Under the pieces are notes generated by a model. That model was given only the letters and a program-made list of their open reading frames with translations. It had not been told where the DNA came from and searched no databases. From assembly GCF_056746865.1 (NCBI RefSeq), contig NZ_CM163382.1: a DNA stretch of 64,000 bases. The stretch is one strand, 5' to 3'. A program made the position numbers and the translations under genes. Shown here in pieces: positions 54,411 to 62,319 of this stretch (position 1 is the stretch's first letter; each line of letters opens with the position of its first letter).

Positions 54411-56447
54411 ATGGTACCCTCAACATTTTCTCGTTTGAAAGCCGCGCGTTGTCTGCCTGTTGTTCTGGCAGCCCTGATTTTCGCCGGTTGTGGCACCCAT
54501 ACTCCCGATCAGTCCACTGCTTATATGCAGGGCACGGCGCAGGCTGATTCTGCCTTTTACCTGCAACAGATGCAGCAAAGTTCTGATGATACCAGGATCA
54601 ACTGGCAATTACTCGCCATTCGTGCACTGGTGAAAGAAGGTAAAACCGGACAGGCGGTGGAGTTGTTTAACCAACTACCGCAAGAACTGAACGATTCTCA
54701 GCGTCGCGAGAAAACACTGCTGGCGGCAGAGATTAAACTGGCGCAGAAAGATTTTGCTGGCGCGCAAAACTTGCTGGCGAAAATCACACCTGCAGATTTA
54801 GAACAAAACCAGCAAGCGCGTTACTGGCAGGCAAAAATCGATGCCAGCCAGGGGCGTCCTTCCATTGATTTACTGCGCGCGTTAATTGCTCAGGAACCGC
54901 TGCTCGGTGCGAAAGAAAAGCAGCAGAATATTGACGCCACCTGGCAGGCGCTCTCCTCCATGACTCAGGAACAGGCGAATACGCTGGTGATCAATGCCGA
55001 CGAAAATATTCTGCAAGGCTGGCTGGATCTGCAGCGCGTCTGGTTTGATAACCGTAACGATCCCGACATGATGAAAGCCGGGATCGCCGACTGGCAGAAA
55101 CGTTATCCGAACAACCCGGGCGCGAAAATGCTGCCAACGCAGTTGGTTAACGTAAAAGCGTTTAAACCCGCATCGACCAACAAAATCGCCCTGATGTTGC
55201 CACTGAATGGCCAGGCAGCGGTATTTGGTCGCACTATTCAGCAAGGCTTTGAAGCGGCGAAAAATATCGGCACTCAGCCAGTGGCGGCTCAGGTAGCTGC
55301 CGCACCTGCCGCAGACGTAGCAGAACAACCTCAGCCGCAAACCGTGGATGGCGTTGCCAGCCCGGCACAAGCCTCGGTTAGCGATCTGACCGGTGAACAA
55401 CCTGCGGCCCAGCCGGTGCCTGTAAGCGCCCCGGCGGCAACCACCGCAGCGGTAAGCGCACCCGCGAATCCATCCGCAGAGCTGAAAATCTACGATACAT
55501 CATCACAACCACTTAGCCAGATCTTAAGCCAGGTTCAACAGGATGGCGCGAGTATTGTGGTCGGTCCGTTGCTGAAAAATAACGTTGAAGAGTTGCTGAA
55601 GAGCAACACCCCGCTGAACGTGCTGGCACTGAACCAGCCGGAGAACATCGAAAACCGCGTCAATATTTGTTACTTCGCGCTTTCACCGGAAGACGAAGCG
55701 CGCGATGCAGCGCGTCATATTCGTGACCAGGGTAAACAAGCGCCGCTGGTGCTGATCCCACGCAGTTCATTGGGCGATCGCGTAGCCAATGCGTTTGCGC
55801 AAGAGTGGCAGAAACTGGGTGGCGGCACCGTTCTGCAACAAAAATTTGGTTCCACCAGCGAATTACGCGCGGGTGTTAACGGCGGTTCTGGTATTGCTTT
55901 AACGGGTAGCCCGATTACTCCCAGAGCGACAACCGACTCCGGCATGACGACCAACAATCCAACGCTGCAAACCACGCCAACCGATGACCAGTTCACCAAT
56001 AATGGCGGTCGTGTCGATGCGGTGTACATTGTGGCAACGCCGGGTGAAATCGCTTTTATCAAACCGATGATCGCCATGCGTAACGGCAGTCACAGCGGTG
56101 CGACGCTGTACGCCAGCTCCCGCAGTGCGCAAGGGACCGCTGGCCCGGATTTCCGCCTGGAGATGGAAGGCTTGCAGTACAGCGAAATCCCGATGCTGGC
56201 AGGCGGTAATCTGCCGTTAATGCAGCAGGCGCTCAGCGCGGTGAACAACGATTATTCGCTGGCTCGCATGTATGCGATGGGCGTTGATGCCTGGTCGTTG
56301 GCAAATCATTTCTCACAAATGCGCCAGGTTCAGGGTTTTGAAATCAACGGTAATACCGGAAGTCTGACGGCTAACCCGGATTGCGTGATTAACAGGAAGT
56401 TATCATGGCTACAGTACCAACAAGGTCAGGTAGTCCCCGCCAGTTAA
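54411..56447 (+). CDS. lpoA: Outer-membrane lipoprotein LpoA, activator of PBP1A
   Basis: ORF track 54381..56447; start at [14 protein letters not shown]...AGCG (lipobox; 678 aa); TPR N-domain and Ala/Pro/Gln-rich linker. Confidence 0.92.
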
Positions 56448-56800
56448 CCACCAAACAGACCGGCGATGCGTGGGAAGTACAAGCGCGTCGCTGGCTGGAA
56501 GGCAAAGGACTGCGGTTTATCGCCGCTAACGTGAACGAGCGTGGCGGCGAGATCGATCTGATAATGCGTGAAGGCCGGACCACCGTTTTTGTCGAGGTGC
56601 GTTACCGCCGCTCTGCGCTTTATGGCGGCGCGGCAGCCAGTGTGACCCGCAGCAAACAACACAAATTATTACAGACTGCCCGCTTGTGGCTCGCGCGTCA
56701 TAATGGGAGTTTTGATACTGTGGATTGCCGGTTCGATGTGGTAGCCTTCACCGGGAATGAGGTTGAGTGGATTAAGGATGCCTTTAATGACCACTCATAA
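56405..56800 (+). CDS. yraN: UPF0102 protein YraN (predicted endonuclease-like)
   Basis: 131-aa ORF recognised; overlaps the lpoA 3' end by 43 nt. Confidence 0.85.
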
Positions 56801-56819
56801 TTAAGGTTTAAGGATTAGC

Positions 56820-57410
56820 GTGCAAGAAAGAATTAAAGCTTGCTTCACTGAAAGCATTCAAACTCAAATTGCGGCGGCAGAGGCGCTTCCGGATGCCATC
56901 TCCCGTGCAGCCATGACGCTGGTTCAGTCTCTGCTCAATGGCAACAAAATCCTCTGTTGTGGTAATGGAACTTCCGCTGCCAATGCACAGCATTTTGCTG
57001 CCAGCATGATCAACCGTTTCGAAACGGAGCGGCCCAGCTTACCTGCCATTGCACTAAATACTGATAATGTTGTCTTAACGGCGATTGCCAACGATCGCTT
57101 ACATGATGAAGTGTATGCAAAACAGGTGCGGGCGCTGGGTCATGCGGGAGATGTATTGTTAGCCATTTCCACCCGTGGCAACAGCCGCGATATTGTAAAA
57201 GCGGTAGAAGCTGCCGTTACGCGTGATATGACCATTGTGGCATTAACCGGCTATGACGGCGGTGAACTTGCAGGTTTGTTAGGGCCACAGGATGTGGAGA
57301 TCCGCATTCCTTCGCATCGTAGTGCTCGCATTCAGGAGATGCATATGCTGACGGTAAATTGCCTGTGCGATCTGATCGATAACACGCTTTTCCCTCACCA
57401 GGATGTTTAA
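56820..57410 (+). CDS. diaA: DnaA initiator-associating protein DiaA (SIS domain)
   Basis: 196-aa ORF recognised. Confidence 0.92.
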
Positions 57411-57419
57411 GGAGAATAC

Positions 57420-60511: not shown

Positions 60512-60934
60512 GTTACGTAGCCAGATCATTTTTTTACCAAAGCCCAGCGTGTTGTCGGTGAATTTGATTTCATCAAGCCGGATTTCCCATACCGGGGCCG
60601 ACAGCATTCTGGCAACCGGAAAGCGACGGTTGTACGCCTTGCGTGCGAGGTCGCTTTCCTCACCTTCAAGCCTGCGGATCTCGCCTTTAAATTGCACGCC
60701 GCGAATTAACGCTACCGTTTTCGGCTGACCGTTTACAGTTCCGGCAACTGCCGCCTGCGGCCCACTCATCTGCGCGTGGCGCGTTTTTTCTTCCGTCAAA
60801 ATGTAGAAGGCGACTTTCTGCGCATCAAAAAGATAAAAGGCATTGGCGCACCACAATTCCCCTTCCTGCTGCACACACCAGGTGACAACATGTTGTTTTG
60901 CCAGCCAACGGCTGATGGCGGTGAGTGTTTCCAT
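60491..60934 (-). CDS. yhbP: Pyridoxamine-5'-phosphate-oxidase-like protein YhbP
   Basis: 147-aa ORF recognised; its 3' end overlaps the yhbO 3' end by 21 nt (convergent). Confidence 0.85.
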
Positions 60935-60984
60935 TGCTGTTCTCTTTTATACTGTGGGCCTGACCTTAACATGCGACGCAGACG

Positions 60985-61287
60985 ATGACACCCTGGTTTC
61001 TTTACTTGATCCGTACCGCCGACAATAAGCTTTATACCGGGATCACCACGGATGTCGAACGCCGCTATCAGCAGCACCAAAGCGGCAAAGGGGCGAAAGC
61101 ACTGCGCGGGAAAGGAGAACTAACGCTGGCGTTTTCCGCGCCAGTGGGCGATCGTTCGCTGGCGTTACGGGCAGAATATCGCGTTAAGCAACTGACCAAA
61201 CGGCAAAAAGAACGTCTGGTAGCGGAAGGCGCAGGGTTTGCAGAACTGTTGAGCAGCCTGCAAACCCCAAAGGTTAAAAGCGATTGA
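60985..61287 (+). CDS. yhbQ: GIY-YIG domain endonuclease-like protein YhbQ
   Basis: 100-aa ORF with GIY-YIG-type motif ([16 protein letters not shown]...). Confidence 0.88.
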
Positions 61288-61777
61288 AGTGCTCGTGATA
61301 CTCAACCAGACCGGTTACGCCATTCAGCGCGTCATCCGCTAAACGATGTACCTGGAAGGCGCTTTCAGTGCCCGGCCAGCGGCAACGCAGATCGTGATGC
61401 GCCGCCAGCTCAAAGCCGAAACGACTGTACAGCGCCGGATCGCCCAGCGTCACCACTGCGGCATAGCCGAACTCATTAAGCGAATCGAGTCCTTCATAGA
61501 CCAGTTGGCGTGCCAGCCCTTGTCCACGGTATTTTTCATCAACCGCCAACGGTGCCATGCCGACCCATTGCAGGTCTTCGCCCTGCACATCAACCGGACT
61601 AAATGCCACATAGCCAATGACCTGACCTTCGTCATCTGTCGCCACCAGCCCCAGCGTCAGAAAGCCATCTTCACGCAGATCGTGAACCAGCTTCGCTTCC
61701 GCATCACTTTCGAATGAACGACGCAGCAGGGCATCAATACCCGGCGCATCAATGGGAATTTCTACTCGAATTAGCAT
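61274..61777 (-). CDS. yhbS: GNAT-family N-acetyltransferase YhbS
   Basis: 167-aa ORF recognised; convergent 3' overlap with yhbQ. Confidence 0.88.
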
Positions 61778-62319
61778 GGTTCACCTACCGATGTCTGTTT
61801 GGTTTCAGGCGCGGTTTTCATTCCCGCCTCAACAAAATCCGCCAGTTGCAGCAGCATCATGCGTAAGGCTTTCGGCATTTGCTCCAGTTCAATGGCGTCC
61901 ATCAGGTTTTTCACATACAGCCCCAGCTCCGTATCGCCTTCAATCACCAGCCGACGCTGGAAGAAGAGCGTATCCGGATCTTGTTTACGCGCCGCAATCA
62001 TCAGCAGATCGCTGGCGTCGGCACTAAAACTCACATCAGCTTGCGCGTTCTGGCTAACGACCAGTTTGCCATTCACCACCGAGGTAAACCATTGCAGGTC
62101 AATATCACGCACATGAATACTTAACCAGCGGCCTTCAAGAAACTCCAGCTCGCCATCATCCAGCGCCTGACGGAATTGCCAGCTTAAGACCTGCTCAAGA
62201 ACCTGGCGTTTTAGCGCAAATGGCGTCAGTTTTACCGGTACACTCAACAGAGATGGCCCCAAATGCACAATACGGGAACGCAGTTTATCCAACACGAGTT
62301 TTACTCCCTGTTTCAACAA
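61771..62319 (-). CDS. ubiT: SCP2-domain protein UbiT (YhbT), O2-independent ubiquinone biosynthesis accessory factor
   Basis: ORF recognised; true start probably a few codons inside (about 174 aa). Confidence 0.85.
   Translation of the reverse strand: MLKQGVKLVLDKLRSRIVHLGPSLLSVPVKLTPFALKRQVLEQVLSWQFRQALDDGELEFLEGRWLSIHVRDIDLQWFTSVVNGKLVVSQNAQADVSFSADASDLLMIAARKQDPDTLFFQRRLVIEGDTELGLYVKNLMDAIELEQMPKALRMMLLQLADFVEAGMKTAPETKQTSVGEPC

Follow-up and report, generated by a model that had tools for sequence, protein, structure and literature searches.

Four gene overlaps that lie close together in a 64,000-nucleotide (nt) stretch of Escherichia coli DNA (contig NZ_CM163382.1 of assembly GCF_056746865.1; the whole stretch is referred to here as the window) are very probably ordinary, conserved gene-boundary overlaps of two standard kinds that have been clustered by chance. 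The overlaps join lpoA to yraN and ubiT to yhbS on the same strand, and yhbO to yhbP and yhbQ to yhbS tail to tail; antisense and double-stranded RNA (dsRNA) would be a consequence of the geometry at the convergent pairs. The substance of this is already known: the overlaps are present in the reference annotation and in published distance tables, the antisense overlap has been catalogued and the ubiT-yhbS operon has been demonstrated. The case therefore matters little in itself, and is useful as a clear negative on novelty and as a neat example of how a tail-to-tail overlap originates. The genes and overlaps concerned are the following.

54411-56447, plus strand: lpoA coding sequence (CDS), penicillin-binding protein activator LpoA, the final 43 nt of which double as the start of yraN (RefSeq, open reading frame (ORF) list)
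56405-56800, plus strand: yraN CDS, UPF0102/YraN family (RefSeq, ORF list, Pfam)
59993-60511, plus strand: yhbO CDS, DJ-1/PfpI deglycase (RefSeq, Pfam)
60491-60934, minus strand: yhbP CDS, YhbP family (RefSeq, direct reading)
60985-61287, plus strand: yhbQ CDS, GIY-YIG domain (RefSeq, direct reading, Pfam)
61274-61777, minus strand: yhbS (= hqbA) CDS, GNAT acetyltransferase, Hfq-binding protein (RefSeq, Pfam, literature)
61771-62295, minus strand: ubiT CDS, SCP2 domain at residues 43-133 of 174, GTG start with GGGAG Shine-Dalgarno (RefSeq, Pfam, conservation)
56405-56447, plus strand: lpoA/yraN co-directional overlap, 43 nt (direct reading; -43 in the K-12 table of PMC10666635)
60491-60511, both strands: yhbO/yhbP convergent overlap, 21 nt, codons in exact antisense register (direct reading)
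61274-61287, both strands: yhbQ/yhbS convergent overlap, 14 nt (direct reading)
61771-61777, minus strand: ubiT/yhbS co-directional overlap, 7 nt, ATGCTAA on the minus strand (direct reading; -7 in the K-12 table of PMC10666635)

The window originates from the E. coli chromosome. Bases 56000-63000 are 100% identical to many complete genomes, and at least 80% of the stretch is present in 5409 of 5426 complete E. coli genomes. Gene coordinates were taken from the RefSeq annotation of an identical strain together with the ORF list, and the junctions were read directly. A preliminary description of this DNA had given overlaps of 43, 21, 14 and 7 nt, and these lengths match RefSeq and the direct reading exactly. 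That the overlaps are annotation artefacts, arising from mis-called starts or over-extended ORFs, is largely refuted and is hardly credible. The overlaps are not removable by annotation, because convergent overlaps depend on stop codons only, and these were read directly. In yraN and yhbS the next in-frame starts come only at codons 43 and 45, where initiation would cut into the UPF0102 domain and the GNAT domain, respectively. The ATG codons and their Shine-Dalgarno sequences are invariant across 67-73 loci of the sample described below, and C-terminally tagged YhbS protein has been detected experimentally (PMC10470549). An artefact would fit the length of the yraN overlap, 43 nt being unusually long relative to the common -4, -1 and -8 classes, and one ORF of the preliminary description was indeed over-extended by 24 nt at its 5' end: ubiT had been started at 62319, the TTG of the longest ORF, and the conserved start is the GTG at 62295. 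This GTG, which GGGAG precedes, recurs in 71 of 73 loci, as opposed to only 5 for the TTG; in 9 loci the two codons are separated by an in-frame stop. No overlap was changed by this correction, and all four survive reassignment of starts and stops.

Conservation was assessed in 80 loci from 17 named Enterobacteriaceae genera, among them Escherichia, Citrobacter, Salmonella, Klebsiella, Enterobacter, Kosakonia, Kluyvera, Leclercia, Lelliottia and Trabulsiella. The loci came from one YhbP scan of representative genomes and are all close relatives (at least 75% YhbP identity); the gene models of each were built by tblastn and then extended to start and stop. Gene order is conserved across the family, and the overlaps recur in the other genera. 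The lpoA/yraN overlap is 43 nt in all 65 loci scored, and the ubiT/yhbS overlap is 7 nt in 73 of 73, with ATGCTGA in most genera outside Escherichia. Of 79 yhbQ/yhbS pairs, 76 overlap by 14 nt; the other three, from Citrobacter loci with a 1-nt indel, overlap by 4 nt (TTAA). All 51 intact yhbO/yhbP pairs overlap, 38 by 21 nt and 13 by 15 nt. Constraint is asymmetric at each junction: the ends of LpoA, YhbO and YhbS are conserved, while the N-terminal tail of YraN and the C-terminal tails of YhbP and YhbQ are variable and lie outside the Pfam domains.

The tail-to-tail overlaps are probably best explained by a dispensable, fast-evolving C-terminal tail (of YhbP or YhbQ) that reads into the constrained end of its neighbor (yhbO or yhbS). 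Such a tail would stop at a codon fixed by the conserved codons of the partner, which would amount to stop-codon displacement with 3' elongation. At yhbO/yhbP the overlapping codons TTA CGC CTG CTC GGT GCC TGA lie against TCA GGC ACC GAG CAG GCG TAA, so that the last six yhbP codons and the stop are antisense to the 3' end of yhbO. The Pfam domain of YhbO extends to residue 168 of 172, and the overlap thus falls in a constrained C-terminal end; the C-terminus REALRLLGA, inside the DJ-1 domain, is nearly invariant. Neither the sequence nor the length of the YhbP tail is constant, the whole protein having 142-147 amino acids (aa) where yhbO is present. At yhbQ/yhbS the last four yhbQ codons and the stop are antisense to the 3' end of yhbS, and the TGA that ends yhbQ is no more than the antisense of Phe-Asn (TTC AAT), codons conserved in YhbS. 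The YhbS C-terminus EYHDHFNRF is conserved. The GIY-YIG domain of YhbQ occupies residues 4-76 of 100, and the tail that follows (residues 77-100) has 70 distinct variants in 79 loci.

At yhbO/yhbP the elongation of the tail appears to be tied to the presence or absence of the whole yhbO gene, a polymorphism that acts as a natural experiment for a disposable tail reading into a constrained neighbor. The gene is absent in 23 of the 80 loci, namely in E. albertii, E. whittamii, many Citrobacter, Kluyvera and Trabulsiella (loci L006, L008, L009, L012, L014, L016, L018-L021, L023, L025, L029, L032, L051, L063, L064, L067, L069, L071, L073, L076 and L081). YhbP in these loci is 140-146 aa long, with a median of 142 compared to 145 where yhbO is present (Mann-Whitney p = 4e-8), and the residues lacking are mostly those that E. 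coli encodes within the overlap. Wherever the next gene was identified, which is in all but six Kluyvera-type loci, it is yraR, on the same strand and 3-42 nt away. From the shorter YhbP and the adjoining yraR, one boundary of the polymorphism therefore lies within the 3' end of yhbP. The overlapping YhbP residues are a passive tail that ends where the antisense of yhbO happens to give a stop codon. This agrees with the stop-codon displacement and 3' elongation model (Huvet & Stumpf 2014, PMC4161906, and earlier models), which has the same variable, non-domain tail as both convergent pairs, with an endpoint set by the conserved codons of the partner, and which predicts the change of YhbP length with presence or absence of yhbO. 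We see no material difference from the model, and this is a textbook instance of it. A yhbP-yraR operon is possible in the loci without yhbO, and the polymorphism itself may go back to an insertion or to repeated loss. In two Escherichia-clade assemblies (L003 and L004) yhbO is aberrant, being in one case 242 aa long with an altered C-terminus and in the other a 29-aa fragment; these could be frameshifts, pseudogenes or assembly errors.

The same-strand overlaps are junctions within an operon, demonstrated for ubiT-yhbS and probable for lpoA-yraN, and are unrelated to antisense regulation. In overlaps of this kind the ribosome-binding site and start codon of the downstream gene would simply be placed within the end of the upstream gene, as the two sites below suggest.

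56394-56399, plus strand: yraN Shine-Dalgarno AGGAAG, within lpoA codons AAC-AGG-AAG (N-R-K), 5 nt before the ATG
61781-61786, minus strand: yhbS Shine-Dalgarno AGGTGA, inside the UbiT C-terminal codons SVGEPC

The first 14 residues of YraN are encoded within lpoA, and its Pfam domain comprises residues 24-114. The N-terminal tail (residues 2-15) varies freely, with 50 distinct variants in 67 loci; the C-terminal 18 aa of LpoA are conserved, with 17 distinct variants among 65 loci. The yraN ATG is at a homologous position in 67 of 67 loci. The ACAGGA of its Shine-Dalgarno is invariant in 66 of the 67, despite the presence of AGG, a rare Arg codon in E. coli. At -43 the junction lies outside the range of local reinitiation, about -8 to +6 nt, and it should not be classed as termination-reinitiation coupling. 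Because the overlap is too long for local reinitiation, we infer that yraN is most likely initiated independently, at its own invariant AGGAAG-N5-ATG inside lpoA, and ribosomes translating lpoA perhaps hold this initiation site unfolded. Co-transcription of lpoA and yraN is suggested by the geometry, which leaves no room for a terminator or promoter. The overlap is widespread, variable in length and already tabulated: the LpoA-YraN COG pair occurs as 262 gene pairs among 1,695 species, with a median distance of -4 and quartiles of -26 and +7 (PMC10666635 supplement). A practical consequence is that 3' deletions of lpoA take away the yraN start.

At the ubiT/yhbS junction 73 loci keep the Shine-Dalgarno region of yhbS, GTAGGTGA, with little or no change, and the conservation of SVGEPC, the codons at the UbiT C-terminus, is due to their carrying this region and the start codon of yhbS. 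Reverse transcription PCR places the two genes in one transcription unit, and Fnr regulation extends to YhbS-SPA (PMC10470549); a second study confirmed for enterobacteria that the ubiT operon has hqbA (= yhbS) as its second gene (PMC10710024). The literature thus points to a shared, Fnr-regulated transcript as the setting of this overlap. Its -7 geometry would fit short-range termination-reinitiation coupling (Huber et al. 2023, PMC10666635), as would the Shine-Dalgarno inside ubiT and the single transcript. The -8 to +6 class makes up 24% of E. coli unidirectional pairs, and coupling was demonstrated in that study on other E. coli pairs (PMC10666635). The likeness is incomplete, however. UbiT and YhbS are functionally unrelated, with no complex known (PMC10470549), and aerobic expression is seen for YhbS but not for UbiT, which points to a possible second promoter within ubiT (PMC10710024). 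The lpoA/yraN junction is unlike these coupled pairs altogether, -43 being far beyond the local-reinitiation range of PMC10666635. The spacer between ubiT and ubiU contains the two Fnr sites that were mutated in PMC10470549, as judged from the primer sequences. The only Rfam hit, to the model CRISPR-DR22 in the same spacer (62327-62363), stayed below threshold, with 21.9 bits where the gathering score is 50 (E = 0.79), and was judged to be due to chance.

According to the preliminary description, convergent overlaps imply antisense transcripts that cross the stop codons, an expectation both geometrically forced and already published. With the intergenic space gone, neither mRNA of a convergent pair has anywhere to end but within the partner gene. 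Both yhbO(+)/yhbP(-) and yhbQ(+)/yhbS(-) consist of adjacent genes on opposite strands, tail to tail, and therefore have the geometry of convergent excludons. The two pairs were looked up in a published table of 165 convergent excludons, each detected in 50% or more of 58 MG1655 RNA-seq samples, and yhbO-yhbP as well as yhbQ-yhbS is listed there (PMC12288877, Table 1, Nucleic Acids Research 2025). They differ from convergent excludons in general in that here the CDSs themselves overlap, rather than untranslated regions (UTRs) only, so that transcript overlap is obligatory and does not come from leaky termination. The antisense 3' ends would pair into dsRNA and be cut by RNase III; transcript overlap has been published for both pairs, and dsRNA for yhbQ/yhbS. 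A search for hairpins followed by a U-tract gave no canonical intrinsic terminator at either convergent junction. Terminator-like sites in the region number 17, compared to 12.1 +/- 3.8 in shuffled sequences, which is no excess; none of the covariance models of Rfam 15 matched at gathering score within 54000-64000, and the TERMITe supplements (Term-seq 3' ends) have no entry for these genes. Three features near the stops deserve description.

60436-60454, minus strand: terminator-like hairpin, 8-bp stem, loop TAA, tail TCTTTATC, a candidate 3' end for yhbP
61234-61268, either strand: palindrome/hairpin within codons of the yhbQ tail, its start 6 nt past the yhbS stop (folding)
61252-61275, both strands: homologous position of the published p19-captured 22-nt RNase III dsRNA 'yhbQ yhbS' (MG1655 3298254-3298278, mapped by sequence)

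The hairpin at 60436-60454 lies 37 nt 3' of the yhbP stop, within the yhbO codons DQLVTS. Its tail TCTTTATC is weak and falls short of the U-tract of an intrinsic terminator. It is kept in 54 loci, yet the peptide that it encodes, DQLVTSRT, is likewise conserved; structural constraint is inseparable here from coding constraint, and we have set this hairpin aside as an RNA-level signal.

The hairpin at 61234-61268 is stable whichever strand is folded (about -20 to -22 kcal/mol, z = -6.4), with no U-tract on either side or strand such as an intrinsic terminator has. The set that carries it comprises 28 distinct sequences, chiefly of Escherichia, Citrobacter, Salmonella and Trabulsiella, with a few other genera; 89% of cells pair in these, as opposed to no more than 56% in slid controls. 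One base pair is GC in 19 sequences and CG in 6; as many covarying pairs as were counted arise in 77 of 500 shuffles, which is not significant. In most loci of Enterobacter, Klebsiella, Kluyvera and Kosakonia the 5' arm has been deleted. The 3' arm is covered by the p19/RNase III duplex, the two reads of which are perfectly paired: CAGUCUGCAAACCCCGGAGAUU with 584 reads and UCUCCGGGGUUUGCAGACUGCU with 274 reads (PMC7373196, Table S3). The minus-strand read starts at the first base past the yhbS stop and the plus-strand read is the coding sense of yhbQ. From this position and these strands, the 3' UTR of yhbS therefore pairs with the 3' coding end of yhbQ in vivo. Because 87% of E. coli genes give at least 1 read per million (RPM) of dsRNA in the p19 study (PMC7373196), this duplex, at 3-7 RPM, is evidence of overlap and not of function. 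The hairpin resembles the bidirectional non-canonical terminators described by SEnd-seq (Ju et al. 2019) and by the model of RNA polymerase (RNAP) collision (Wang et al., bioRxiv 10.1101/2022.10.23.513370) in being a stable stem-loop on either strand without a U-tract. Unlike those elements, which lie between gene boundaries, it is within the yhbQ coding sequence and is absent in most loci of several genera. We regard it as a minor lead only. It is quite improbable that it is a selected bidirectional RNA element, that is, a non-canonical pause or terminator and RNase III entry site that sets the 3' end and stability of hqbA mRNA and reciprocally couples HqbA to the levels of the YhbQ nuclease in Escherichia, Citrobacter and Salmonella. 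Possible control of the hqbA mRNA 3' end by this hairpin is the sole point of modest interest.

More broadly, the convergent overlaps could be selected excludons, kept for reciprocal repression by RNAP collision and RNase III cleavage, an explanation that we consider unlikely. It predicts that Fnr-induced ubiT-yhbS lowers yhbQ, and that induced yhbO, a stationary-phase stress gene, lowers yhbP. A search of the literature returned no experiment on mutual regulation of yhbO/yhbP or yhbQ/yhbS, and no expression data specific to either pair were found. The membership of both pairs in the E. coli excludome speaks for selection, as genome-wide such pairs have higher synteny and tend more towards mutually exclusive expression in single cells (ExcludonFinder, PMC12288877). 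So do the RNase III duplex at the yhbQ/yhbS junction and the overlap lengths, which are nearly fixed over 17 genera. The hairpin by the yhbS stop, finally, is kept with some compensatory change while the protein tail of YhbQ varies. Other points weigh against it. The absence of yhbO from 23 of 80 loci leaves yhbP without visible change except for a shorter tail; the hairpin is missing from most loci of four genera and its covariation count is not significant; and a single duplex of low abundance is a weak sign of function when most genes give dsRNA. Some of the evidence does weigh against reading the overlaps as ordinary. In the part of the p19 tables covered (PMC7373196) no yhbO/yhbP dsRNA was found, the genome-wide tendency of excludons towards mutually exclusive expression means that a regulatory role is not to be dismissed, and the partly conserved hairpin hints at selection on RNA structure over pure drift. 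Moreover, conservation alone is no proof of selection for overlap, as a doubly coding segment is kept anyway in such close relatives.

Nor is the clustering itself in need of a special cause. In published E. coli data 663 of 4047 adjacent pairs overlap (586 lie in the same orientation, another 75 are convergent, the other 2 divergent), and according to PMC10666635 K-12 has 2987 unidirectional pairs. From these rates the binomial probability of at least 4 overlaps among the 11 junctions of the region is 0.09 before correction for scanning. The corresponding values are 0.25 for at least 2 of 5 co-oriented junctions and, nominally, about 0.04 for at least 2 of 3 convergent ones. About 370 such 11-pair windows and about 9 back-to-back doublets of convergent overlaps are expected per genome; these figures are binomial estimates from published rates, not a permutation on the full annotation. 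The run of overlaps, described earlier as dense, is thus not unusual. Locally selected compaction, with the density of overlaps reflecting a special supra-operonic organisation, could draw on the 4 of 11 overlapping junctions, the 2 of 3 convergent pairs and the gene order conserved across the family. It has very little probability, given the uncorrected chance values and the numbers of windows and doublets expected; the genes are also functionally unrelated, and the same region has ordinary spacers of 121, 127 and 208 nt. Ordinary overlaps brought together by chance account for the arrangement better.

The preliminary description had listed YraN, YhbP, YhbQ and YhbS as functionally uncharacterised, which holds for YhbP, the sole one of the four with a family name that carries no function (Pfam, RefSeq). 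Functions have been assigned to two of the others: YhbS is HqbA, an Hfq-binding acetyltransferase (PMC10710024), and YraN is described in a preprint as an endonuclease of the PD-(D/E)XK type, working together with the ComM helicase during natural transformation (bioRxiv 10.1101/2024.02.06.579203). YhbQ has a functional name in RefSeq, 'DNA damage response exodeoxyribonuclease'; our literature search found no paper characterising it, and the name comes from the RefSeq product name only. YhbO belongs to the DJ-1/PfpI family and is named deglycase in RefSeq. For work on these proteins a caution follows from the overlaps, in that C-terminal tags or deletions of yhbS, yhbQ, yhbO or yhbP necessarily change the 3' end of the partner gene.

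The remaining genes of the region were placed from RefSeq and the ORF list.

56820-57410, plus strand: diaA
57420-57995, plus strand: dolP
58117-59157, minus strand: yraQ
59230-59865, minus strand: yraR
62504-63499, plus strand: ubiU

The third convergent junction, dolP/yraQ, contrasts with the two that have no spacer. Its spacer (57996-58116) contains a G/C-rich palindromic repeat (CCCTCTCCCCAAAGGGGAGAGGG and flanks), of which there is a median of 6 copies per E. coli genome. The exact spacer (at least 80%) is present in only 428 of 5426 genomes, so this spacer varies between strains. Separately, the p19 study lists an abundant dsRNA cluster, no. 204 'diaA yraN' ('Full & New AS'), at about 56690-57053 of the window on the minus strand. 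Antisense transcription start sites of this cluster are at MG1655 3293799, 3293995 and 3294041 (about 56796, 56992 and 57038 of the window), and a sigma-70-like match is found nearby on the minus strand (57091-57064). This suggests an antisense RNA opposite yraN and diaA, which the preliminary description did not mention.

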